Source of the DNA: an uncultured Armatimonadia bacterium
GTDB taxonomy: Bacteria > Armatimonadota > Zipacnadia > CAZGSV01
Length of the DNA stretch: 64,000 bases
Assembly: GCA_964528605.1 (NCBI GenBank)
Contig: CAZGSV010000002.1
Coordinates: 14,563-78,562, forward strand
Direction of reading: 5' to 3'
A program made the position numbers and the translations under genes. Below, piece after piece: positions 18,410-54,311 of this stretch. The notes below the pieces were generated by a model. The model had not been told where the DNA came from. It did no database searches and saw nothing but the letters and a program-made list of their open reading frames with translations. Each line of letters starts with the position of its first letter. The stretch's first letter is position 1.

Positions 18410-18639
18410 AGGCGCCGATTCTAACCGGCCAAGTCCCGCCTCGCCACTCCTCACCGCCGACTGGCGACTGGCCGCTACCCCTATTGAGTCAGCGCGGCTA
18501 GCGCCCTATACTTGTGGTGGCCGTGCTAGACGGGGAATCGGCGACTCCCTGCCCCGCCTTTGGCGGGGAACCCGAGCGCCCAGCGGGGTCGAATTCCCGA
18601 CCGAGGGGCGAGCCGGTCAGGTCTGACTGAGGCAAGTGG

Positions 18640-18755
18640 CGTTGATGGCTGGGTCCTGCGCAACGAGCGCTCGCGAACCCCGTCAGGTCCGGAAGGAAGC
18701 AGCGGTAAGTGAGAATGCTCGTGTGCCGCAGGGGCGCCTGGCCGGAGCCAACTGC
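18640..18755 (+). ncRNA. ffs: Signal recognition particle RNA (4.5S/ffs, small bacterial type).
   Basis: The universally conserved domain IV motif GUCAGGUCCGGAAGGAAGCAGC is at 18682..18703, followed by GUGUGCCG. The 5' end (gttgatggctgggtcctgcgc) and 3' end (gcgcctggccggagccaac) can pair as helix 5. The length of ~115 nt matches E. coli 4.5S RNA. Confidence 0.6.
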
Positions 18756-18993
18756 TTCAGTAACGCTGCCCGGGGACCCTCGAAGCCGGGTGCACGGCCA
18801 TCAGTGCGAGTGGCGAGTGACCAGTAGCCAGTGATCAACGGACAGTGACCAGAGGGAGGGAAGGGCGCGGCGCGGAATTGCGCGTTCAAGTCTATAGGCG
18901 AGTGCAGCAAGCGGCCCTTCTTCGTCCGCTCTCGGCTGACCTTGCTCCGCGGGCCCACCTTGACCTCCCGCACTACCTGCTCAATCTCCGCCT

Positions 18994-20140: not shown

Positions 20141-20232
20141 GGAGAGGTGGCTGAGCGGCCGAAAGCGCCCGACTCGAAATCGGGTGGTGGGGTCAAAAGC
20201 CTCACCCGTGGGTTCGAATCCCACCCTCTCCG
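20141..20232 (+). tRNA. tRNA-Ser (anticodon CGA), class II with a long variable arm. CCA is encoded at 20233..20235.
   Basis: The acceptor is GGAGAGG/CCTCTCC, the anticodon stem-loop is CCCGA-CUCGAAA-UCGGG, the T-arm is GTGGG-TTCGAAT-CCCAC and the discriminator is G. Confidence 0.85.
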
Positions 20233-20412: not shown

Positions 20413-20504
20413 GGAGAGGTGTCCGAGTTGGTCTAAGGAACGTGACTGGAAATCGCGTAGGCGGGTTAACCCCTGCCTCGTGGGTTCGAATCCCACCCTC
20501 TCCG
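20413..20504 (+). tRNA. tRNA-Ser (anticodon GGA), class II. CCA is encoded.
   Basis: The acceptor is GGAGAGG/CCTCTCC, the anticodon loop is CUGGAAA, the T-arm is GTGGG-TTCGAAT-CCCAC and the discriminator is G, followed by CCA. Confidence 0.85.
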
Positions 20505-42999: not shown

Positions 43000-44010
43000 T
43001 TACGGTACCAAGTCTATCCCATCCGGGCGCGGTTTGAACCTGACCGCCCGAATGGCAGACCCGGGCCCCTCCTCGTAGTAGACGCAGAGCACCACGCCGT
43101 CCCGCAACTCGACCATGCTCGGATAGGCCCCGCCCACGTGGTCCAGCACGAACGGGCCCTGCCAAGTCTGCCCCAGGTCCGCGCTGAGGTGCAGGCTGGT
43201 TTCAGGCAGGCGGTGGGCCAGAAGCAGAAGGCCGGAGGAGTGGACCAAGGCGTGGGGACAATGGCCCGGAAAGCCCGCCTCCCGCACCGTCCAGGTGTGG
43301 CCCTGGTCGGAGGAGAAGGCCAGGCACATGCAAGGCCGGAGCGCCGTGAACAGCCTGCCGTCGGGCAGGCGGATGATGTGGGGCTCGGCGTCGTGCCGGT
43401 GGGTGCTGGTGGTGTCAATGATGGTCAGTTCGGGCCAGGTGCGGCCCCCGTCGAAGGACCGGAGCAGGCCCGCCTTGGCGCTGGAGGGAATCTCGTAGTA
43501 GACGGGCAGGAGCAACTCGCCCGAGGGCAGTTCCGTGATGGGCGCGGAGCAGGCGAAGTTGCCTTGTTGAGTGACCTCAGGGAAGTGAGGCTCGGACCAG
43601 GTTTTGCCCAGGTCGTTGGACTCCACCACAGCGACATGGAATCCCGCCGCCTCGGTATAGGTGAAGAAGTTGCAGAGCAGCCGGCCGTCGGAGAGTTGCG
43701 TGACAGAGGGGTCCCGGTCGTCGAGCGGAGTGTCCACGACGACGGTGGGGTCGCTCCAGGTGCGACCCTCATCCGACGAGCGAACCGCGCAGATGCGAGC
43801 GCCGCGGGGCAGGCTCTCGTTGGGCAGCGATACGTGGCCATACCCGGCGTAGAACACGCACAGCAGTTCTCCGTTGCTCAGGCGGCAGATATCGGGGAAA
43901 GCCTGATAGCCGCCCGCCCCCGCATCGCGAACCACCACTTGGTAAGGAGGCTGAACCTGACCCACCGCGGCCAAGGCAAACACGCCCGCCGCGCCCAAGA
44001 ATGCGCTCAC
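43000..44010 (-). CDS. Secreted BNR/Asp-box repeat protein (sialidase/GH33-like beta-propeller).
   Basis: It has five Asp-box motifs (SDEGRTWSD, SNDLGKTWS, SFDGGRTWP, SSDQGHTWT, SADLGQTWQ). A GTG start at 44010 gives the signal MSAFLGAAGVFALAAVGQ. The upstream part of the track ORF is antisense to the next gene. Confidence 0.65.
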   Translation of the reverse strand: MSAFLGAAGVFALAAVGQVQPPYQVVVRDAGAGGYQAFPDICRLSNGELLCVFYAGYGHVSLPNESLPRGARICAVRSSDEGRTWSDPTVVVDTPLDDRDPSVTQLSDGRLLCNFFTYTEAAGFHVAVVESNDLGKTWSEPHFPEVTQQGNFACSAPITELPSGELLLPVYYEIPSSAKAGLLRSFDGGRTWPELTIIDTTSTHRHDAEPHIIRLPDGRLFTALRPCMCLAFSSDQGHTWTVREAGFPGHCPHALVHSSGLLLLAHRLPETSLHLSADLGQTWQGPFVLDHVGGAYPSMVELRDGVVLCVYYEEGPGSAIRAVRFKPRPDGIDLVP

Positions 44011-44051: not shown

Positions 44052-44894
44052 CTAGAAAGCCGCTTGCCACACCTTGAGCAGCGCGGCGCCCGCCGTGGTC
44101 AGCCTTTCCTCTTCCGGTAGGGCCTGCAACTCCTTGCTGAAGGGCTCGGGAGCGACCGGGCCGGTGTAGCCAATCTTCTCCAGCGCCCGCAGGAAGCCGA
44201 CTAAGTCTATGACTCCCGTTTCGCCGGGCAGGCGGCGCACATTGTCCACCTGCTCCTCTATGGGAATGCCGGCGGGCGCGTCGTTGATGTGGACGTAGAC
44301 GACTTGCTCGTCTCTGAGCGTCTCCAACTGTTCCACGGTGCCGCCGGAGGTGTACCAATGCCAGGCGTCGAGCAAGAGGCCGACATTTCCGGTGCCCACG
44401 GCATCGCAGAGTTCTAGCATCTGCTCCATGGTATGAATGAACTCGTACTTGTGGCCCGCACGCGAGGTCTTGGGCCCGAGGAACTCCAGGCCAAGCCAGC
44501 AGCCGTTGTCCGCGAGAATCTCCGCCGCCGGACGCACGCGCTTCATCAGGAAGGCGGCGTTCTCGGCGTAAGGCCTTTCGTCGGACCAAGAGGGAATCCA
44601 GGTTGCGGCGCGCGTGTAGGCGATGGAGGCTGCGGCCGCGGTGACCGGCAGCAGCCGCTCAAGTGCCTCCTCATAGGCCGCCTGCTCATCGAAGAAAGGC
44701 GCCGGCAGCCCCCAGCCGCCCAGGACCATGTCCGCGCGCTCCAAAGCCTCCACCACCTTGTCCCGGAACGCCGGGTCAAGCAGTTGCCGGGCGTCAACGT
44801 CTATCCCTTCGAAGCCCGCGGCGCGCGCCGGCGCCAGCGCCTCAAAGAACGGCTTGCCATATCCGATTGCTCCTGGACTGAGGTTCTTGAACAC
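44052..44894 (-). CDS. Sugar phosphate isomerase/epimerase (xylose isomerase-like TIM barrel).
   Basis: It has the LGLEFLGPKTS...HINDA pattern of the AP_endonuc_2 TIM family. Confidence 0.8.
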   Translation of the reverse strand: MFKNLSPGAIGYGKPFFEALAPARAAGFEGIDVDARQLLDPAFRDKVVEALERADMVLGGWGLPAPFFDEQAAYEEALERLLPVTAAAASIAYTRAATWIPSWSDERPYAENAAFLMKRVRPAAEILADNGCWLGLEFLGPKTSRAGHKYEFIHTMEQMLELCDAVGTGNVGLLLDAWHWYTSGGTVEQLETLRDEQVVYVHINDAPAGIPIEEQVDNVRRLPGETGVIDLVGFLRALEKIGYTGPVAPEPFSKELQALPEEERLTTAGAALLKVWQAAF

Positions 44895-45072: not shown

Positions 45073-45600
45073 ATGCCAGTGTTGGAGGCTATTCAGAAGC
45101 GGTACAGCGTGCGCGCGTATCAGGACCGTCCGGTTGAGCCCGAGAAACTGGAGCGGATCATGGAGGCGGCCCGCCTCGCGCCCTCGGCGGGCAACAGGCA
45201 GGATTGGCGTTTCATCATCGTGCAGGACCACGCTAGGCGGCAGGCCCTGATGCGCGCGGCCAAGGGACAGGCGTTCGTGGGCCAGGCGCCGGTGGTGATC
45301 GCGGCGTGCGCGGAGGGCCCTGACCACGTGATGACCTGCGGCCAGTCCATGCACGCGATTGACGTTGCCATTGCTTTGGAGCACCTCGCCCTGCAGGCGA
45401 CGGCGGAAGGCTTGGGGACGTGCTGGGTGGGCGCCTTCGACGAGGCCGAGGCGAAGGCGGTCCTCAACGTGCCGGCGGACTCGCGGGTAGTGCAGTTGAT
45501 GCCGCTGGGCTACCCGGCGGACGAGGCGCGCCCCAAGAGCCGCAAGGAACTCAAAGAGATCGTGATGTACGAGGCCTGGGGCGTCCACACGGCACCGTAG
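45073..45600 (+). CDS. Nitroreductase family protein.
   Basis: It has the RYSVRAYQDRPVEPEKLERIMEAARLAPSAGNRQDWRFIIV nitroreductase signature. Confidence 0.85.
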   Translation: MPVLEAIQKRYSVRAYQDRPVEPEKLERIMEAARLAPSAGNRQDWRFIIVQDHARRQALMRAAKGQAFVGQAPVVIAACAEGPDHVMTCGQSMHAIDVAIALEHLALQATAEGLGTCWVGAFDEAEAKAVLNVPADSRVVQLMPLGYPADEARPKSRKELKEIVMYEAWGVHTAP

Positions 45601-45633
45601 GTCGCGGGGGCCATTCAGCACGCGGTCGATTGT

Positions 45634-46089
45634 CTAGGCCTTCATCAGCTCTGGATGGTCTTGCCGCAACCAGCCTATGACCTGCCGCTTGAACTGCCCG
45701 AGGTCACCCACCAATTCCTCAACTTCCCTCTCCGTGGCAGCCGGGATCGCATCGTAGACCACATCGCCGCGTCGTCGCCGGCACCGATGGTAGTAGCGGG
45801 AACGGTCGATCTGCGCGGCGCCCATTATGAGGGGCAACGCTTCCACCACCACCTGATGCTGGCCCTCCCGGCCCACGGCTCTGCAGCCGGCCGCGCGCAG
45901 CGCCACCGTACAGAGCAAGCGCGCCGCGTCCCAGGCCGCAGCGAACCGCCACTCTGCCGACTGGTCAACCTTGGCGTCTTGGATGCGCTCCGTTGCCTTC
46001 CCTAACAGCCCCGCGATCTCCCGTGCGCTTGCCGGCTGCTCGGCCAGTCTTCCTTCTGCTACCAACGCGCTCAAGGTCACCTTCCTCAC
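45634..46089 (-). CDS. HEPN-like protein, a probable toxin partner of the upstream wHTH-MNT gene.
   Basis: It is alpha-helical and has an Rx4H-type motif (RSRYYH). It lies immediately downstream of, and overlaps, the MNT gene (the usual MNT-then-HEPN order). Confidence 0.45.
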   Translation of the reverse strand: MRKVTLSALVAEGRLAEQPASAREIAGLLGKATERIQDAKVDQSAEWRFAAAWDAARLLCTVALRAAGCRAVGREGQHQVVVEALPLIMGAAQIDRSRYYHRCRRRRGDVVYDAIPAATEREVEELVGDLGQFKRQVIGWLRQDHPELMKA

Positions 46090-46771
46090 CCCGCACCATC
46101 AACTTCGGCCCCTTCCAGACCGCGTCCACGAAATGGTCTCGGTTAGCCAGGCGCCCACTGAACTCCTCGCTGCCCATCACCACGGGGCTGATCTGTCGCG
46201 CCAGTGCCTCCTCCAAAGGGCCCAACACTGGCACCAGGTCGCGCAGGCCAGCTTCGCCCACCACAAAGAGATCAATGTCACTGTCAGGCCGCGGTGTGCC
46301 CTCCGCGAAAGAACCATATATGAAGGCGACCCGAATGCCTTCGAGTGCCGCGAGGGCCTCGCGCACCCTGTCGACAAGCCCCACGGTCTTGATCATAATG
46401 GACCGCAACTCGGGCAATATGGGGCAGGAGGTGTTGGCCCGGTACACCACTTCTCGGCCGTGCTTCCTGCGCTCCAGTACGCCCATCGCCGCCAGAGCGC
46501 CGAGATGATAGGAGGCGACCGTGGGAGCCACACCCACCCGGGCTGCGGCCTCCGACATGTAGAACCCGCGATCAGGGTTCAGCAGGAAGAGCCCCAGGAG
46601 TGCCTCTCTGGCTCGTGAGAAAAGGCCAATCCCGGAGGAGCCTCCCTTTCCGGGTGGTCTACCGTGGCCCGGCTTCGCGCGACGCCGGGTGACCCTCACC
46701 AGGCTGCTACGGGCGGGGGCTCGGCCGCGTTTCCCCCCCTGCTCAGCAGACTCCCGCATTCTTGGTGACAA
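45965..46771 (-). CDS. Winged-HTH (ArsR-like) domain fused to a minimal nucleotidyltransferase (MNT).
   Basis: The HTH is LGLFLLNPDRGFYMSEAAARVGVAPTVASYHLGALAAMGVLER. The NTase motif is IYGSFAEGTPRPDSDIDLFVVGE. The exact start is uncertain. Confidence 0.65.
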   Translation of the reverse strand: MSPRMRESAEQGGKRGRAPARSSLVRVTRRRAKPGHGRPPGKGGSSGIGLFSRAREALLGLFLLNPDRGFYMSEAAARVGVAPTVASYHLGALAAMGVLERRKHGREVVYRANTSCPILPELRSIMIKTVGLVDRVREALAALEGIRVAFIYGSFAEGTPRPDSDIDLFVVGEAGLRDLVPVLGPLEEALARQISPVVMGSEEFSGRLANRDHFVDAVWKGPKLMVRGEEGDLERVGSRRKTGRAAGKRTGDRGAVREGNGAHPRRQG

Positions 46772-46867
46772 CTGCGCTCTCCCTTCTCTTTCTGCCGCAG
46801 TCTACTCCAGCGCCGTTCGGCATTCTCTGGAACGATTCAGGGCGAGGTTCCCCAAAAGCACTCGCCC

Positions 46868-47122
46868 ACCATTCACTGCAACTTTCCCGAAAGTATTTCA
46901 GCATTTTTCGTAGGATTCGGTCAACCCTTTCGAAAACATTCGCTACACTCTTCGTACAATTTACTGCAACTTTTCCTAAAATACTTTAGCATTTTTGCAG
47001 AATTGGGGAAGACGGTTTCAAGAACGTCTGCTGCATTGTTCGTACAGTTTACTGCAACTCTTTCTAGAATACTTTAGGATTTCTTGTACAATCTGCTGAG
47101 CTCTTTCGAAAGCATTTGCCGG
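46868..47122. repeat. Three imperfect ~85-bp tandem direct repeats in a sharply AT-rich (~40% GC) tract.
   Basis: The units begin at 46868, 46951 and 47039. They share TTYACTGCAACTYTTYC and ARTAYTTYAGSATTTYT blocks and a TTGTACAA palindrome, in a ~67% GC background. Confidence 0.7.
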
Positions 47123-47287
47123 TTTTGCGGGGTGCTTACCGTAACTCCTGCGCGGATGGTCGGCCTTCTGCGGCAGACGCGCAGTTCTCTACCTGCAACC
47201 GCAAAGAACGATAGAGCAGGCCAAAAGCCTGTGTGCGCCGCGCCAAACCGCCACGCTACCGAGGGATGGAGAGGTTCGGGCCGGCGC

Positions 47288-48487
47288 TCAGGCCTCCGGC
47301 GGGATGAAACCGAAGTAGCGGCCCGACCAGTAGGCGCGCAGGAAGTACCTAGGCACGCCCTCCAACACGACCTCCACCATCCGCTCCTTGCCCGGAAGCC
47401 CCAGGAGCGACGCAGGAAAGGCCTGAACCGAGGAACTGTACTTGGGCACTTCGTGCAGGTACGGCCTCTTCGCCCGCTCGCGCGTGGCCGGCCGACGCGC
47501 CAGCGTGTAGTCGAAGTCACTGACCTCGAATGAATGCAGCCACTCCCAAGTCTCCTCCGCAATGGGCGCCCTGGGGTGAAAGGCCTTGTAGGTCCAGTTG
47601 AAGAGCGCGTCGTGCATATGCCTGGCGCGCGAGCCTCGCCACTGGGCCTGCAGCGCCCGATAGTAGTAGCGAAGGAGCCCGGGATCCGTCTCGTAGCAGA
47701 GGAGAGTGTACAGAGGGCACATGGCGAGGTTGTAGTCCCACTCGGACGGCTCGGGGTTCGTCTCCGTGTTGGCGCGCGCGGCGATCTTGTGGTAGCCCCA
47801 CTCTTGGATCAGACGCTGGTACTCCCTCAGGTAGCCTCGCTTCTTGGTGATCTGGTAAGCGCCGCGCAGATGGCTCAGGGCCTGCAAGGCGTTGAGATTC
47901 TCTTCTAGTACTAGCGGCGACATGTTGCCCCAAAGGGTCATGCGCCCGTCCACGTCCACGATGCGCATGCCCTGGTCCACGATGCGGCGCATGACGAGGT
48001 CCACGTCCTTGGCTATCTGGCGCTTCTCCTTCGCGTCGGCCACCAGGTCGCAGTAGAGTTCGTAGCCGAACATCAGGCCGACGAGAGAATCCGTGCTCGG
48101 GTCGCCCAACCAGCGGTATTCGCCCGCCTGATGCCACTCGCGCGGAAAGAAGAAGGCCTGCTCGTCCCAGGTGGCCCCGTTGCCACGCTTGAAGCCGCGC
48201 GCAAAGCAGCCGTCCGTGCGCGTGACGCGCTGGAGCATGCGCAGCGCGCGAGCGGCCGTGCGAGCGCGCTCCTTCGCCTTGGGATCCCTCGTCGCTGCCC
48301 AACGGAAGGCCTGAGTCGCGAGATACATCCCGGTCGAGAGCGCGTCGCTTTCGTGGTTGCCGGTGGAGTAGTCCGGCAAACCGATCGGCGGCAACACCAC
48401 TAGGGCTCGAATCTGCCCCTGGTAGGTATGACGCTCCTCGAGCATCGCCTCGCACAACATAGCCTTCTCATAGAGAGTCATGGGCAT
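47288..48487 (-). CDS. Uncharacterised conserved protein, paralog A of a four-copy tandem array (399 aa).
   Basis: It shares the blocks MxxTLYEKAxLCEA, LPPxGLPDYSTGNHExDA, FFFPREWHQAG, YRWxGDPSTDSL, VDVDGRMTLWGNM, YYRALxxQW and LRAYWSGRYFGFIPPEA with the three other paralogs. Confidence 0.8.
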   Translation of the reverse strand: MPMTLYEKAMLCEAMLEERHTYQGQIRALVVLPPIGLPDYSTGNHESDALSTGMYLATQAFRWAATRDPKAKERARTAARALRMLQRVTRTDGCFARGFKRGNGATWDEQAFFFPREWHQAGEYRWLGDPSTDSLVGLMFGYELYCDLVADAKEKRQIAKDVDLVMRRIVDQGMRIVDVDGRMTLWGNMSPLVLEENLNALQALSHLRGAYQITKKRGYLREYQRLIQEWGYHKIAARANTETNPEPSEWDYNLAMCPLYTLLCYETDPGLLRYYYRALQAQWRGSRARHMHDALFNWTYKAFHPRAPIAEETWEWLHSFEVSDFDYTLARRPATRERAKRPYLHEVPKYSSSVQAFPASLLGLPGKERMVEVVLEGVPRYFLRAYWSGRYFGFIPPEA

Positions 48488-48635
48488 CCCGCCACCTCAC
48501 AGGGCCCGGGCCCGCAGGTTAGGTCGCGGCAGCCGCGTCGTGGGTAAACCGCGACGCTACCGGGCGTTGGCAACACATCCGCGTCGTGGGTGCACCACGA
48601 CGCTACCGCCAGGATGGAAAGGTTCGGGCCAGCGC

Positions 48636-49790
48636 TCAGGCCTCCGGCGAGATGAAGCCGAAGTAGCGGCCGGACCAGTAGGCGCGCAGAAAGGCTCGCG
48701 GCACTACCTCGGATACCGCCTCGATGACCTTGCGCTTGCCGTTGACCACAAGTTCGAACTTGCGCTCCTGCACCGGCGGCTTGAGGGCGTCCGCCGTGAC
48801 CTTGGCCGGGAACTCCCGCGCCCCTAGGTCCGTCGTCTCCAGCCACTGCCAGGCCTCCGCCCGCATGGGCGCCCGCGGATGGAGCGCCTTGTAGACCACG
48901 TTGAAGAAGGCGTCGTTGGGGCCGTTCGCGTAGGTGCGCTTCCACTGCACCTCCAGAGCGCGATAGTAGTAGCGCAGCAAGTCCCCGTCGGCCTCGTAAC
49001 GGAGGAGCGAGTAGAGGGGCGAGACCGCCAGATTCCAGTCGTGAACCGCGGGCGGCGGGTCGTCCTGCGCATTGGCCAGCGCGGCCCTCTTATGGTAGTC
49101 CCACCCGTCAATCAGGCGGTGATACTCGTCCAGGTAGCGCCGCTTTTTGGTGATGTGATGGGCGGCGCGCAGGTGGCTGAGGGCCTGAAGCGCGTTCAGG
49201 TTCTCCTCGAGAATGTAGGGGTTCATGTTGCCCCACAGCGTCATGCGCCCGTCCACATCGAGCACGCGCATGCCGTTGTCCACGACGTGGCCCATGATGA
49301 GGTCCACGTCCTTGGCGACCTCGGCCTTCTCCTTGGCGTCGGCGACCAGGTCGTGGTACTGCTCGTAGCCGGACATTAGGCCCACGAGGGAATCGGTGCT
49401 GGGGTCCCCGACCCAGCGATACTTCCCGGCCTGATACCACTCACGCGGGAAGAAGAAGAACTGCTCGTCCCAAGTAGGGCCGTCGGCGCGCTTGAAGCCG
49501 CGCGCGAAGCAGCCCTTGCTACCGGTGAGGCGCTGCAGTTTGCGCAGCGCCCGCGCCACCGCTTTCGCTTGGCGCTTGGCCCGCGGATCCTTGGTCGCGG
49601 CCCAGCGGAAGGAGAGAGCCTCTAGATACATCCCGGTGGCCAGGGCATCGCTCTCGTGGTTGCCGGTGGAGTAGTCCGGCAGCCCCGCCGGCGGCAGGAT
49701 GACCTGCTGCCTAACCTGCCCCTCGTAGTAGTGCCTCCCCTGGACCAGGGCCTCGCACAGTATCGCCTTCTGGTAAAGAGTCAGAGCCAT
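48636..49790 (-). CDS. Uncharacterised conserved protein, paralog B (384 aa).
   Basis: It is colinear with A, C and D at about 55-65% identity by eye. Confidence 0.8.
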   Translation of the reverse strand: MALTLYQKAILCEALVQGRHYYEGQVRQQVILPPAGLPDYSTGNHESDALATGMYLEALSFRWAATKDPRAKRQAKAVARALRKLQRLTGSKGCFARGFKRADGPTWDEQFFFFPREWYQAGKYRWVGDPSTDSLVGLMSGYEQYHDLVADAKEKAEVAKDVDLIMGHVVDNGMRVLDVDGRMTLWGNMNPYILEENLNALQALSHLRAAHHITKKRRYLDEYHRLIDGWDYHKRAALANAQDDPPPAVHDWNLAVSPLYSLLRYEADGDLLRYYYRALEVQWKRTYANGPNDAFFNVVYKALHPRAPMRAEAWQWLETTDLGAREFPAKVTADALKPPVQERKFELVVNGKRKVIEAVSEVVPRAFLRAYWSGRYFGFISPEA

Positions 49791-49990
49791 TCTCTCACCT
49801 CATGATTCTCGGTTCGGTGGTTTGCCGTCGCGGGTAAACCGCGACGCTACCGACATGCGCGAGCGGATGCTGCACAAACTCCTTACAGGCGGACGCAGAA
49901 CAGCCACACCGAATCACGCACGAGGCGAATGGCTGCCTCCCTCGGTGCTCCGCGCCACAAGCCAGAGCGGGTACGCCGGGGTCAGACGAC

Positions 49991-50206
49991 CTACCGCGCT
50001 GCGACTAAGTTCTCCAGATGGATCTGCTTGTCCCTCAGGCCGGGGATGACCTCGCTGGCATCGAGAACCTCGATCCCCACCACCCGCTCCCCGGGCCCAA
50101 TGTCAACGGCAACCTGGTCGTTGAGCCGGATAACCTGACACTCGGTCGGCTCCTCGACAAACCGAATGTAGAGCGCGTCCACCGAGGGGTCGTAGGTTAT
50201 CTTCAC
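49991..50206 (-). CDS. DUF2283 family protein, the antitoxin partner of DUF4258.
   Basis: MKITYDPSVDALYIRF... is the canonical DUF2283 N-terminus. It is 71 aa and lies immediately downstream of the DUF4258 gene. Confidence 0.75.
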   Translation of the reverse strand: MKITYDPSVDALYIRFVEEPTECQVIRLNDQVAVDIGPGERVVGIEVLDASEVIPGLRDKQIHLENLVAAR

Positions 50207-50221
50207 GGCTCGCTCACTTCC

Positions 50222-50485
50222 TCAGAAGTAGTATACATGGACCGTGACCACCGTGCATTCGCCGCGCTCCAGAACCACAATAGGCGCCACCTGCTTGACC
50301 GCGCACCACTTCCCACGCCACAGGGCATTGAGCGGGAAGTTCTTGCGAAACATCACGCGGCCCTTGCGGCAGGCCTCGGGCTCTCCTTGGCGTATCGCGG
50401 TGATGACGTCCTCCTCCGAGGCTCCCCGATCAGCCATTCTGACGCGGGCGTGCGGGCTGATCTCTATTGTCACGTCGGCGCTCAA
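50222..50485 (-). CDS. DUF4258 family protein, the toxin of a DUF4258/DUF2283 TA pair.
   Basis: It has HARVRMADRG...VITAI and a C-terminal VVTVHVYY, which is the DUF4258 pattern. It is 87 aa. Confidence 0.7.
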   Translation of the reverse strand: MSADVTIEISPHARVRMADRGASEEDVITAIRQGEPEACRKGRVMFRKNFPLNALWRGKWCAVKQVAPIVVLERGECTVVTVHVYYF

Positions 50486-50523
50486 GGCCTCGCCTCACAA
50501 CACGGCGGGAGAACGACTCACGC

Positions 50524-51678
50524 CTACGCCTCCGGCGGGATGAAGCCGTGATAGCGGCCCATCCAGTACGCGCGCAAGTACCCCGTTGGCGCGCCCTCGA
50601 CCACACCTTCAATCACCCGCGGCCGGCCGTCAATGACCACCTCGAACTTGCGCCTGTGCGCGATGGGCTTAGGAGCGCTCGGCGTCGGTGAACCGGGATG
50701 CTCCGGCTCGCCGATCTCAAAGGCGTGCAGCCAGTCCCAGGTCTGCTTGCGAATGGGAGCGCGCGGGCGCAGCGCCTTGTAGGCCCAGTTGTAGAAGGGA
50801 TCGTCGCGCCCAGCCGCCTGCACGCCCTTCCACTGCACCTCTAACGCGCGGTAGTAGTGGCGGAGCAGGCTCTCGTCCTTCTCGTATTGCAGTAAGAGGT
50901 AGAGAGGGCACGTGGCCAGATTCCAGTCCCAGGGCGAGGGCACCGGAGAGGCCTGCGCGTTCGCCAGGGCCGCCTTCTTATGGTAGTCCCACTTCTCGAT
51001 CAGCCGACGATACTCCCGTAGGAAGAGGCGGTTCTTGGTCATGTGATAGGCGCCCCGGAGGTGGCTGAGCGCCTCCAGCGCGTTCAGATTCTCCTCCAGT
51101 ATGTAGGGGTTCATGTTCCCCCACAGCGTCAAGCGGCCGTCCACGTCCACGATGCGCATCCCCTTCTCCACGATGCGGCCCATGAAGCCCTCGACGTCCT
51201 TCGCCACTTCCTTCTTCTCCTTCGCGTCGGCGACGAGGTCGTAGTACAGTTCGTAGCCGAACATCAGCCCGACCAGCGAGTCGGTGCTCGGATCGCCCAC
51301 CCAGCGATAGTTGCCGGCCTGGTGCCACTCGCGCGGGAAGAAGAAGACCTGCTCGTCCCAGGTCGGCTTGTCGGCGCGCTTGAACCCGCGCGCGAAGCAG
51401 CCTCTGACCCCCGTTACCTGCTGCAACTTCCGCAGGGCGCGCGCGGCCTCTTGCGCGCGTTGCTTTGCCTTGGGCTCACGCGTGACCGCCCAGCGGAAGG
51501 ATTCGGTCCCCAGATAAGTTCCTGTCGAGATCGCATCGTCCTCGTGGTTGCCGGTGGAGAAGTCGGGCAGCCCGGCGGGCGGCAGGATGACGTGATTGCG
51601 CACCTGTCCCTGGTACCCGTGCCGTTCCTCCATTACCGCCTCGCACAGCAGCGCCTTCTCGTACAGACTGAGAGCCAT
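50524..51678 (-). CDS. Uncharacterised conserved protein, paralog C (384 aa).
   Basis: It has the same conserved blocks as paralogs A, B and D. Confidence 0.8.
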   Translation of the reverse strand: MALSLYEKALLCEAVMEERHGYQGQVRNHVILPPAGLPDFSTGNHEDDAISTGTYLGTESFRWAVTREPKAKQRAQEAARALRKLQQVTGVRGCFARGFKRADKPTWDEQVFFFPREWHQAGNYRWVGDPSTDSLVGLMFGYELYYDLVADAKEKKEVAKDVEGFMGRIVEKGMRIVDVDGRLTLWGNMNPYILEENLNALEALSHLRGAYHMTKNRLFLREYRRLIEKWDYHKKAALANAQASPVPSPWDWNLATCPLYLLLQYEKDESLLRHYYRALEVQWKGVQAAGRDDPFYNWAYKALRPRAPIRKQTWDWLHAFEIGEPEHPGSPTPSAPKPIAHRRKFEVVIDGRPRVIEGVVEGAPTGYLRAYWMGRYHGFIPPEA

Positions 51679-51917
51679 CTTGTCACCTCGTAGTGCGGAT
51701 GATTGCGGCCGACGGGCGGCACTGTAGCGCCGCAGACGGTGTCTTTCAAGGCGGTCGTGGGGATGTATGGCCCGCCCCTACTTCCGCGGCGCCGCCAGGG
51801 GCCGCTGCGCAGGGGCGAGGCGCCTGCCTCACCCGCTGTCCTGTAGGAGCGGCATTCTTGTTCACCCGCCTCAGGAGGGCCCCCAGTTCGCAGCGGCGAG
51901 CCGTGGGCTGGCGCGCG

Positions 51918-53072
51918 CTAGGCGTCGGCAGGTATGAACCCGTGGTAGCGGCCCATCCAGTACGCGCGCAGATACGGGGTGGGCGCCCCCTCGACCGCCG
52001 CCTCGATCACCTGCACCTTGCCGCCCACCTCCAACTCGAAGCGCTGCTTCCTGTCCACCAGCGGCGGCGTAAACGGGCTGGGTGAGCCCGGGTGTTCCGG
52101 GTCCCCAGGTTCATAGTCACGCAGCCACTGCCAGGACTCCTTCGGGATGGGCGCCTCCGGGCGATAGGCCTTGTATGCCCAGTTGAAGAAGGGGTCACGC
52201 AGGTGCTCGCGCCGCACCCCGCGCCACTGGATCTCCAACGACCGGCGGTAGTAGGCGAGCAGGCTTGAGTCGGTCTCATACTTCAGCAGCGGGTAAAGGA
52301 TGGACATCGCCAGGTTCCAGTCCCACGGCGACTCGCCTGGCTCCTTGTTCGCATTGGCGCGCCCCGCCCTCTCGTGATAGCCAAAGTCCCGGATCAAGCG
52401 GTGGTACTCCTGCGGGAAGCGGCGCTTCTTGGTGATGTGGTAGGCGCTGCGGAGGAAACTCAACGGCTCCAGCGCGTTCAGGTCTTCCTCAAGGATGACC
52501 GGACACATGTTGCCCCACATGGTCATGCGCCCGTCTGCATCCACGATGCGCATGTTGGCGTCCACGATCTTCCCCATGATGAGGTCAACGTCCTTGGCCA
52601 CTTGCGCTTTTTCCTTCGCATCCGCGACCAGATCGTAGTAGAGCGCATATCCGAAGATGATGCCGGCGAGGGAGTCAGTCATGGCGTCACCCACCCAGCG
52701 GTACTCGCCCGCTTGGTGCCACTCGCCCGGATAGTAGAAGAACTGCTCATCCCAACTGGGGCCCCGGCCGCGCTTGAAGCCGCAAGCGAAGGCGCCGTCG
52801 CTGCCGGTGATGCGCTGCAGTTCGCGCAGCGCCCGCGCCGTCTGCCGCGCGCGTCGCCTGGTCGCAGCATCCTTAGTGACGGCCCAGCGGAAGGACAGGA
52901 CGCCTAGGTAGGTGCCGGTGGAAATGGCGTCGTCTTCGTGGTTGCCGGTGGAGTAGTCGGGCAGCCCGACGGGAGGCAGGAGCACGTGGGTTCTGACCTG
53001 CCCCTCGTAGTTGTGCCGCTCGTCCATTACCGCTTCGCAGTGCAGCGCCTTCTCGTAAAGCGTGTGGGCCAT
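51918..53072 (-). CDS. Uncharacterised conserved protein, paralog D (384 aa).
   Basis: It has the same conserved blocks. It is closest to paralog C in the C-terminal third (GDPEHPGSPxP). Confidence 0.8.
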   Translation of the reverse strand: MAHTLYEKALHCEAVMDERHNYEGQVRTHVLLPPVGLPDYSTGNHEDDAISTGTYLGVLSFRWAVTKDAATRRRARQTARALRELQRITGSDGAFACGFKRGRGPSWDEQFFYYPGEWHQAGEYRWVGDAMTDSLAGIIFGYALYYDLVADAKEKAQVAKDVDLIMGKIVDANMRIVDADGRMTMWGNMCPVILEEDLNALEPLSFLRSAYHITKKRRFPQEYHRLIRDFGYHERAGRANANKEPGESPWDWNLAMSILYPLLKYETDSSLLAYYRRSLEIQWRGVRREHLRDPFFNWAYKAYRPEAPIPKESWQWLRDYEPGDPEHPGSPSPFTPPLVDRKQRFELEVGGKVQVIEAAVEGAPTPYLRAYWMGRYHGFIPADA

Positions 53073-53213: not shown

Positions 53214-54311
53214 TTAGGCCGGCGACGAGGAGAGCATCTGCGCGATGCGCTGCTCCTCGTCCGCCTGCTGCAGGTGCTGCAGCAGGTCCTCCAACTCACC
53301 ATCGAGGATCTGCTCGAGGTTGTGGGTGGTGTAGTTGATGCGGTGGTCGGTGACGCGGTTCTGCGGGAAATTGTAGGTGCGGATCTTCTCCGAGCGGTCA
53401 CCGGTCTTGATTTGCGCCCGTCGAGTGGCCGCGATCTCCTGCTCCTGCTCCGCCATTTTCTGCTCGAGCAAGCGGGCGCGCAGCCAGCGCATGGCCTTCA
53501 CCTTGTTCTGCAGTTGGCTGCGCTCGTCGCTGCACTGCGCCACCAGGCCCGTGGGCACGTGCGTAATGCGCACGCCGGTCTCGTTCTTCTGCATGTGCTG
53601 CCCGCCCGGGCCGCCCGCGCGGAAGGTGTCTGTGCGCAGGTCGTTGGCCTCTATCTTGACGTCAACTTCCTCCGCCTCCGCCAGCACCGCAACGGAAGCG
53701 GCGGAGGTGTGCATGCGGCCGCTGGCCTCGGTGACCGGCACGCGTTGGACGCGATGCACGCCGCTCTCGAAGGAGAGCAACCCGTAGGCGCCCTTCCCCT
53801 CCACGGCCAGCGTGACTTCCTTGTAGCCGCCGAGGCCGGTCGGGCTGGCGTCGAGCGCTTGCAGTTTCCAGCCCTTGCGTTCGGCGAAGCGCGTGTACAT
53901 CCGACAGAGGTCGGCGGCAAAAAGGGCCGCCTCCTCGCCGCCCGTGCCGGCGCGGATCTCAACGATGGCGTTACGGTCCCAGTTGGGGTCTCTGGGAAGC
54001 AGGCGGCGCCGCAACTCGCTCGCCAGCGACCCCACTTCTCCGTGAAGTTCCTCGAGTTCGCCGCGCGCCATCTCCGCGGTCGCTTCGTCGAGGTCGCCCT
54101 GCCGCAGCATCTCTTCGGTGGTGCGCACTTGGCGCTCGGCTTGCTGGTAGCGGTCGTACAACCCGAGCAGTTCGCTCAGTTCCGCCCGCCGCCGCGCCAG
54201 TTCGCGGTAACGGGGCAGGCCCCCGGTGACCGCCGGGTCAGCCAGGCGCCCCTCGAGTTCTCCGAGTTCCTTGCGCGCCTTCTCTAGTTGCTCGATGAAC
54301 TGGTGCAACAT
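53214..54311 (-). CDS. prfA: Peptide chain release factor 1.
   Basis: It has the PVT tripeptide anticodon motif ([15 protein letters not shown]) and the GGQ motif ([22 protein letters not shown]). Confidence 0.85.

Follow-up and report, generated by a model that had tools for sequence, protein, structure and literature searches.

Four tandem paralogs from an uncultured Armatimonadia bacterium encode predicted six-hairpin barrel proteins of a large, unnamed family and form an old chromosomal array

Within a 64,000-nucleotide stretch of contig CAZGSV010000002.1 from an uncultured Armatimonadia bacterium (this whole stretch is hereafter the window), four minus-strand genes, A to D, encode paralogous proteins that an initial annotation, made from the sequence alone, had been unable to assign to a named family. 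An open reading frame (ORF) check of the window confirmed all four genes and the colinearity of their products:

51918..53072, minus strand: paralog D, 384 amino acids (aa); the most divergent copy, with near-universal residues of the family changed (R97C, S131M); ratio of nonsynonymous to synonymous divergence (dN/dS) 0.29 against the sister strain
50524..51678, minus strand: paralog C, 384 aa; the copy used for modelling; orthologues 76-80% identical in related loci L085, L094, L095 and L102
48636..49790, minus strand: paralog B, 384 aa; orthologues 66-71% identical; synonymous divergence (dS) from the sister strain about four times that of A, C and D
47288..48487, minus strand: paralog A, 399 aa; variable loop with a 15-aa insertion; orthologues 71-73% identical

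Pairwise identities among the four proteins are 60-67%, and 45% of the columns in their alignment are invariant across all copies; the shared sequence blocks described by the initial annotation are present, with slight deviations in D (for example, FFYYPGEW). Each ORF is maximal, starting at the first start codon that follows an upstream in-frame stop, so that no hidden N-terminal extension is possible. The products begin directly at helix 1 of the barrel described below and, at 384-399 aa, lack both an export signal and an N-terminal Reg_prop propeller. Judging from maximal ORFs that open with helix 1, the A-D proteins are most likely cytoplasmic.

None of the four proteins matches a Pfam, NCBIfam or PADLOC model above threshold. 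In the Pfam scan, B gave a sub-threshold hit to GH127/DUF1680 (PF07944; 17 bits against a cut-off of 24.9, over 73 residues), a family for which A, C and D returned no match. Searches of PDB sequences with four-sequence and 62-sequence profiles likewise found nothing for the barrel, their sole matches being the propellers of hybrid two-component sensors, caused by propeller columns in the profile. The lack of a family name thus holds across all of these resources. Structure prediction of C with AlphaFold2, using a 62-sequence alignment, yielded a model with a predicted local distance difference test score of 92.1 and a predicted template modelling score of 0.92, composed of twelve helices and a C-terminal β-hairpin, with disorder confined to residues 326-339. 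Inspection of this model revealed long connections between helices 1 and 2, 3 and 4, 5 and 6, 7 and 8, and 11 and 12, and short connections between helices 2 and 3, 4 and 5, 6 and 7, and 8 and 9. This alternation corresponds to the six-hairpin (α/α)6 pattern, and on the strength of the model A-D are predicted (α/α)6 six-hairpin barrel proteins. The (α/α)-toroid guess of the initial annotation was therefore borne out, by structure prediction on C and by fold searches, and the carbohydrate-enzyme-like character that it had proposed (glycoside hydrolase, epimerase or lyase) is plausible.

In both of two fold searches, glycosidases and epimerases rank above cyclases. A-D resemble the glycoside hydrolase (GH) family 76 α-1,6-mannanases and the GH15 glucoamylases in that their conserved acids are predicted to occupy the N-terminal ends of every other helix, on the face with the long loops, but they share only 6-10% identity with these enzymes and match neither family in Pfam; for GH76 no Pfam match appeared at E ≤ 1, the similarity being structural only. 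Members of the AGE superfamily (cellobiose 2-epimerase, N-acylglucosamine 2-epimerase and YihS) are 10-13% identical to A-D and give no hidden Markov model match, and their His-based catalytic set is not demonstrably conserved in A-D. The uncharacterised, exported YPO2471 protein of Yersinia pestis (PDB 7TEM), on which the searchable literature has nothing relevant, is 9% identical to A-D, with no sequence-level match.

Far from being confined to this genome, a possibility that the initial annotation had raised, the barrel belongs to a very large family. A word-indexed search of 5.8 billion clusters returned 87 relatives, none with a barrel-based name, and an exhaustive profile search of 1.84 billion representatives returned 2,291 at E ≤ 1e-30, each standing for a cluster at 50% identity, a figure that is a lower bound for family size (the count at E ≤ 1e-3 is much larger but inflated by propeller-only matches, the profile having contained propeller columns). 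A scan of species-representative genomes identified 507 confirmed family loci. The genome-locus analyses reported here rest on the best 80 of these, which are all at most 34% identical to A-D and come from Acidobacteriota, Bacteroidota (Dyadobacter, Arenibacter, Maribacter and Cyclobacterium), Verrucomicrobiota, Armatimonadota, Planctomycetota and gut Acutalibacteraceae. Homology of the barrel to the family is evident both from phmmer and hmmsearch (E-values of 1e-17 to 1e-70 over 98-100% of the query) and from tblastn (E = 1e-35 to 1e-51, 26-34% identity).

The typical family protein has 520-790 aa and comprises a signal or lipoprotein leader, a Reg_prop β-propeller and a C-terminal barrel, with an N-terminal extension of 120-370 aa preceding the barrel in canonical members. 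RefSeq names these proteins after the propeller ('two-component regulator propeller domain-containing protein', as in Dyadobacter, Maribacter and Chondrinema) or calls them hypothetical; NCBIfam has no model for the barrel, and literature searches on propeller plus GH, six-hairpin plus polysaccharide utilization locus, PF07494 and the RefSeq product name returned nothing relevant on the family, the 'six-hairpin GH-like' hypothetical protein named in one Maribacter paper being unrelated or unverifiable. The barrel family is accordingly both large and unnamed, and is covered by neither Pfam, NCBIfam and PDB sequences nor the searchable literature. Neighbouring paralogs, as in the A-D array, occur in 10 of the 80 loci. 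In Dyadobacter jiangsuensis (L038, 6996-14575), and syntenically in L010, L040, L055, L067 and L073, two canonical propeller-plus-barrel paralogs flank a YdjC-like gene, with a gene for a PfkB-kinase/HAD-phosphatase fusion upstream of the paralogs.

Alignment of 168 distant members defined the family motifs D46-N-D48-G-x-W-T, W126-K-G-D129-T-S-S-D133-E134-x-x-G-H138, D178-x-D-G-x-x-T-x-W-G and L-L-P-Y-W-x-G-R-Y, together with D251, E266 and D268. Residues common to these proteins and A-D are H20, T52, Y55, W118, W126, D129, D133, D178, T184, W186, D251, E266 and the YWxGRY motif. In the predicted secondary structure, the conserved acids fall mostly in long loops or at the N-termini of helices 2, 4, 6 and 8, which would place them on the face that holds the active sites of six-hairpin enzymes. 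To the adjacent Asp-Asp catalytic pair of GH76 there may correspond the adjacent D133-E134 of canonical relatives, a position at which A-D have D133-S134.

These comparisons bear on the possibility that A-D epimerise or isomerise sugars in the cytoplasm, like AGE, cellobiose 2-epimerase or YihS; the barrel would then bind a mono- or disaccharide, and conserved histidines would transfer protons. AGE-type enzymes, too, are stand-alone and cytoplasmic and have about 390-420 aa. Almost every family member has H20, A-D also share H45 and H212/H233, and a sugar-isomerase-like TIM-barrel gene lies downstream of the array. Nevertheless, we consider this explanation doubtful: beyond the low identity noted above, there is no Pfam match to the GlcNAc 2-epimerase family, the canonical H138 is lost in A-D, acids at helix N-termini are more typical of glycosidases, and most members of the family are exported and fused to a propeller, an arrangement unusual for epimerases.

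In a neighbor-joining tree, A-D join other stand-alone proteins, of about 365-400 aa, in a separate clade, which departs from the canonical motifs as follows:

Position 46: D in canonical members, E in the window's clade
Position 47: N in canonical members, S or D in the window's clade
Position 49: G in canonical members, A in the window's clade
Position 51: W in canonical members, S or A in the window's clade
Position 127: K in canonical members, V or L in the window's clade
Position 134: E in canonical members (95%), S in the window's clade
Position 138: H in canonical members (90%), L, I or R in the window's clade

In all four copies, E-[SD]-D-A-x-[SA]-T and D-[PA]-[SM]-T-D-S-x-x-G-[LI] thereby replace the canonical DNDGxWT and DTSSDExxGH. 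The clade retains D133, D129, D48, D178/D180, D251 and E266, and carries an insertion in the loop between helices 3 and 4 that contains K100, D108-E109 and R125, residues that are invariant down to relatives of 35% identity. Because these charged residues are both new and invariant, the active site of A-D looks remodelled, or rebuilt, rather than decayed.

The D-S form is scarce. The 80 genome loci contain 87 family genes; 84 of them show the canonical D-E-H combination, and none shows the D-S combination of the window. When metagenomes were scanned with subfamily patterns, 266 relatives emerged, and the best 80 of these loci included 19 of the D-S type, 31 of several stand-alone D-Q types and three of a D-T type, the D-S loci coming almost entirely from two Joint Genome Institute sample series (Ga0315... 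and Ga0129....). Stand-alone forms are thus diverse yet rare, and the window's D-S type is narrowly distributed. Two further variants were observed among family genes: a 615-aa metagenome protein of the stand-alone clade (P0027) carries an FGE-sulfatase/EgtB-like domain joined to its C-terminus, and at L098/L121 (8001-9226) the gene is split into ORFs of 267 and 130 aa, probably a pseudogene, adjoining a GH29 α-L-fucosidase gene.

The array lies next to the gene that the initial annotation had named as its boundary on this side:

53214..54311, minus strand: prfA (release factor 1, RF-1); conserved upstream anchor of the array

In the neighbor-joining tree, A groups with P0011, B with P0005 and P0010, and C with P0002, P0003 and P0004, D grouping only with the near-identical P0008. 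Gene order is also preserved among relatives. L085 carries a D-slot copy followed by C-like (76%), B-like (69%) and A-like (73%) genes; in L094, from a metagenome-assembled genome (MAG) at NCBI, C-like and B-like copies come immediately after rpmE-DUF1385-prfA; and L102 has C-like, DUF4258, DUF2283, B-like and A-like genes and then a minimal nucleotidyltransferase (MNT) gene. More distant members, at 42-47% identity, occur as two or three tandem copies in L087 and L090 and as single copies in L092 and L100. Between the copies in the window, dS is about 1 (saturated) and dN/dS 0.21-0.35, and the individual copies show dN/dS of 0.12-0.26 against orthologues and 0.09-0.42 against sister-strain contigs; these low values throughout indicate that all four copies are maintained by selection. 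Mobility of the locus was considered and rejected, phage records containing no relative of the family and plasmid records only three non-mobilizable Chondrinema megaplasmids, all with the canonical form. The description of the array as a rapidly evolving accessory locus consequently does not stand: A, B and C have orthologues of their own, the order (D)-C-B-A recurs after rpmE-DUF1385-prfA, selection is purifying and mobile-element relatives are virtually absent. The array is an old, stable chromosomal arrangement.

Against the sister-strain contigs, dS is 0.12 for B and 0.02-0.035 for A, C and D, which suggests a recombination tract or gene conversion limited to B, the copy adjoining the toxin-antitoxin (TA) pair described below. 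The RF-1 protein of the window shares 70-75% identity with a few metagenome proteins but only 52-59% with its counterparts in named bacteria from many phyla, pointing to a host from a deep, poorly sampled lineage.

Where, then, do the maintained copies differ? Divergence at catalytic residues was examined and rejected as the answer, since scarcely any fixed difference at the putative catalytic residues separates the A, B and C groups. Paralog D is an outlier on the putative catalytic face (R97C, S131M, P130A and FF→YY), and two of its changes replace residues that are 97-99% conserved family-wide. The copies diverge instead at residues 321-365, where 0-20% of columns are invariant in A-D as against 45% overall. 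This segment, into which the 15-aa insertion of A falls, comprises the long connection between helices 11 and 12 and the β-hairpin and contains the sole low-confidence stretch of the model; canonical members keep conserved W332, E341, R342 and W349 within it. We infer that segment 321-365 may act as a substrate-facing lid, and that the copies would differ in the substrates they accept or in their binding partners.

Both the motif replacements and the similarity of the copies could alternatively be read as signs that A-D are pseudoenzymes, that is, sugar-binding or scaffold proteins, possibly assembled into a hetero-oligomer that would explain the fixed set and order of the genes. E134 and H138 are replaced clade-wide, D in addition lacks R97 and S131, the order (D)-C-B-A is fixed across relatives, and the putative active site is almost the same in A, B and C. 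The clade has, however, gained the invariant K100, D108, E109 and R125 in a loop on the same face while keeping D133, D129, D48, D178, D251 and E266, and its single-copy members (L092 and L100) indicate that a hetero-oligomer is not obligatory. We therefore judge a pseudoenzyme role to be unlikely.

Downstream of the array, on the same strand, lie two genes that may encode pathway partners of A-D:

44052..44894, minus strand: xylose-isomerase-like TIM-barrel protein (AP_endonuc_2); possible pathway partner
about 43000..44010, minus strand: BNR_2 sialidase-like β-propeller protein; possible pathway partner

The most telling hint from gene context is that a pair of the same type closes the operon-like gene row around P0028, a relative of about 40% identity, which runs GntR regulator, sugar-type solute-binding protein, P0028, two ABC permeases, AP_endonuc_2 and BNR_2. 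When the window's AP_endonuc_2 and BNR_2 proteins were compared with the 80 genome loci by tblastn, BNR_2-like sequences appeared in seven loci and AP_endonuc_2 in one. Neighbour censuses covered 235 genes around canonical members and 165 around stand-alone members. Canonical members adjoin BNR_2 (six), DHDPS (four), AP_endonuc_2 (four), GFO_IDH_MocA (three), YdjC (two) and UxuA (two) genes; D-S members adjoin DUF1846, PFK with FBP aldolase, and ICMT/PEMT with phosphodiesterase (two each) as well as GH116 and GH29 (once each); and D-Q members adjoin ThuA (6 of 94 neighbouring genes), GFO_IDH_MocA and a GH172-like gene. Close inspection of the Maribacter, Arenibacter, Cyclobacterium and Chondrinema neighbourhoods found no informative partner. 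The theme of these neighbourhoods is a diffuse one of sugar metabolism, without a fixed partner that would point to a particular substrate.

A different chemistry is suggested by some stand-alone members. A gene for an ICMT/PEMT-type membrane methyltransferase stands directly upstream of family genes at L001 (422-1090), L092 (9359-9841) and L100 (4599-5081), which represent two independent lineages (the Nitrospiria MAG of L001, and L092/L100), with a type I phosphodiesterase gene downstream in L092/L100. This linkage would fit a barrel acting on an isoprenoid or lipid-linked substrate, in the manner of class II terpene cyclases or other non-glycosidase (α/α)6 proteins, and an acid-rich motif at a helix N-terminus presumably recalls, if loosely, the DxDD motif of terpene cyclases. 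We regard this as highly improbable for A-D, since cyclases are outranked by glycosidases and epimerases in both fold searches, the proteins have a single barrel as opposed to a two-domain βγ architecture, gene context is mostly sugar-related, and the DxDD motif itself is absent from A-D.

Two further gene pairs and a repeat tract lie within or beside the array:

50222..50485, minus strand: DUF4258-like putative toxin, 87 aa; 38 bp past the C stop codon; Pfam score 24.1 bits against a cut-off of 25
49991..50206, minus strand: DUF2283 putative antitoxin, 71 aa; 15 bp past the toxin gene; Pfam score 53.6 bits, E = 2.6e-14
46868..47084, no strand assigned: three direct repeats at 88-bp intervals, upstream of the MNT gene; AT-rich relative to the window; 41-67 nucleotides alignable at 68-83% identity
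45965..46771, minus strand: winged helix-turn-helix (wHTH) plus MNT protein, PADLOC PDC-M05A, E = 6.3e-53; the likely start gives a 226-aa product ending at 46645
45634..46089, minus strand: MNT partner, PADLOC PDC-M05B, E = 2.4e-28

The DUF4258/DUF2283 pair is present between B and C as the initial annotation had proposed, with DUF4258 marginally below its cut-off; its portrayal as an insertion interrupting the array needs revision, at least as a recent event. L102 carries the same TA pair at the same site, with toxin and antitoxin 64% and 79% identical to those of the window, between barrel genes that are 66-80% identical, and with like spacings (38-40 bp from C to the toxin gene and 15 bp from there to the antitoxin gene). 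The MNT protein is 66% identical in L102 and its partner, compared in L104, 61%. Modules that have diverged to the same degree as the flanking genes and kept the same spacing were inherited with the array, and recent insertion of the TA pair is rejected by this co-divergence. TA presence is polymorphic among relatives: the pair is absent in L085 and L094/L095, and both the TA and MNT modules are absent in L087 and L090. In being a two-gene DUF4258/DUF2283 module with 15-bp spacing, located between tandem homologues and co-inherited with them, the pair resembles the TA cassettes of superintegrons; it differs in that no integron features were seen at the window's array. The searchable literature held nothing relevant on the DUF4258 and DUF2283 pairing. 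Conceivably, the TA pair might guard the tandem repeats against loss by recombination.

Of the wHTH-MNT/HEPN pair claimed for the other flank, the wHTH-MNT component was confirmed; the partner has no Pfam match, leaving the HEPN label unconfirmed. The pair is an adjacent module, the PADLOC candidate system PDC-M05, and not part of the enzyme array. The AT-rich repeat tract said to bound the array proved to consist of the three 88-bp-spaced direct repeats, which lie in the region's lowest-GC part and may be a triplicated operator or promoter of the MNT module; the sister strain has a single unit. Comparison of the window (45591-47230) with L081/L082 (14449-15695) shows a PDC-M05-like cassette swapped between near-identical strains: the flanks are 98.6-99.3% identical, but the cassettes cannot be aligned as DNA and encode proteins of just 66% and 47% identity. 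The MNT allele of the sister strain is 74% identical to that of L102, from another species, and thus closer to it than to the window's.

Such observations invite the proposal that the array belongs to a defence or accessory island and functions jointly with the DUF4258/DUF2283 and PDC-M05 modules. Both modules are co-inherited with the array in L102/L104, and the MNT pair matches a PADLOC candidate system whose cassette is exchanged between near-identical strains. The proposal nonetheless strikes us as very unlikely to be correct: A-D match no PADLOC model, relatives carry the array without the TA pair (L085 and L094/L095) or without either module (L087 and L090), the array sits in the housekeeping block rpmE-DUF1385-prfA, homologues are lacking in phages and essentially lacking in plasmids, and the genes are under purifying selection in a stable order.

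A short non-coding motif recurs downstream of two of the paralogs:

48612..48630, minus strand: 19-nucleotide motif GGCCCGAACCTTTCCATCC (coding strand), directly after the B stop codon
47264..47282, minus strand: 19-nucleotide motif GGCCCGAACCTTTCCATCC, directly after the A stop codon

The two copies are identical, with one Y position. The initial annotation had taken conserved 3' flanks as a sign of tandem duplication; the motif does follow A and B, but it cannot demonstrate such an origin for the whole array, since it is absent after C and D, and as a mark of every duplication unit it was rejected for the same reason. Among all fetched loci the motif occurs only in the window's species and is missing from the orthologous arrays of other species. 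Given a dS of about 1 between copies, a perfect non-coding 19-mer is more likely to reflect recent local homogenisation or a functional element, and may serve as a terminator, a processing site or a conversion tract. A promoter/terminator scan of the locus performed no better than shuffles. Elsewhere in the window, RNA genes at 18521-18797, 20141-20232 and 20413-20504 correspond to a large-type bacterial signal recognition particle RNA and two tRNA genes.

Taking these lines of evidence together, the explanation we favor, with moderate confidence, is that A-D are six-hairpin enzymes acting on carbohydrates in the cytoplasm, their active site rebuilt and each copy with a lid of its own, a reading in which the enzymatic activity, the sugar substrate and the role of the variable loop are what we infer. 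The four genes are ancient duplicates, each retained by selection, from a rare stand-alone subfamily of an exported propeller family. A sugar or oligosaccharide would bind in the funnel of long loops on one face of the barrel, where the family-invariant D133, together with the acids E46, D48, D129, D178/D180 and D251, might perform hydrolysis or a related reaction. The four copies share this putative core site and differ almost exclusively in the loop and β-hairpin of segment 321-365 on the catalytic face; they are best read as covering related specificities, or as partners of one another, and not as redundant. The DUF4258/DUF2283 and MNT/partner pairs have accompanied the array for a long time and would be selfish or defence modules outside its chemistry.

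Several observations weigh against this explanation. No activity was found in the searchable literature for any family member, canonical or otherwise, and the clustering of the conserved acids into a pocket follows from secondary-structure topology only. Replacement of the family's most conserved residues (E134, 95%; H138, 90%; N47; W51) could reflect loss of catalysis, and active-site residues, which are almost alike in A, B and C, do not establish a functional distinction among the copies. With regard to context, neighbourhoods are diffuse, each partner gene being limited to a few percent of the loci at most; SusC/D loci are not where the canonical form usually occurs; and in the window itself the MNT module and an opposite-strand nitroreductase gene separate A from the AP_endonuc_2/BNR_2 pair. 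A more ambitious version of the favored explanation, in which A-D stand for a new, uncatalogued carbohydrate-active family whose stand-alone clade has been rebuilt (D-S plus a K...DE...R loop in place of D-E...H), form a four-enzyme panel with a specificity lid at 321-365 and are protected by the TA pair from recombinational collapse of the repeats, is in our view tentative and, as a whole, rather unlikely.

Current ideas are not overturned by these findings. The locus provides a natural example of a fixed-order paralog array kept over the long term in a housekeeping neighbourhood, and of TA and MNT modules that descend together with such an array even as module alleles are traded between strains. 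The fold class is familiar, but the family is undescribed by curated resources despite comprising at least about 2,300 clusters and occurring in more than 500 species genomes, including those of the culturable Dyadobacter, Maribacter and Arenibacter; it represents a sizeable blind spot in the annotation of carbohydrate enzymes. The two-paralog loci of Dyadobacter offer a culturable system in which to study it, and the 384-aa proteins of the window, which are minimal barrels and model with high confidence, would be convenient subjects for the family's first structure and assay.

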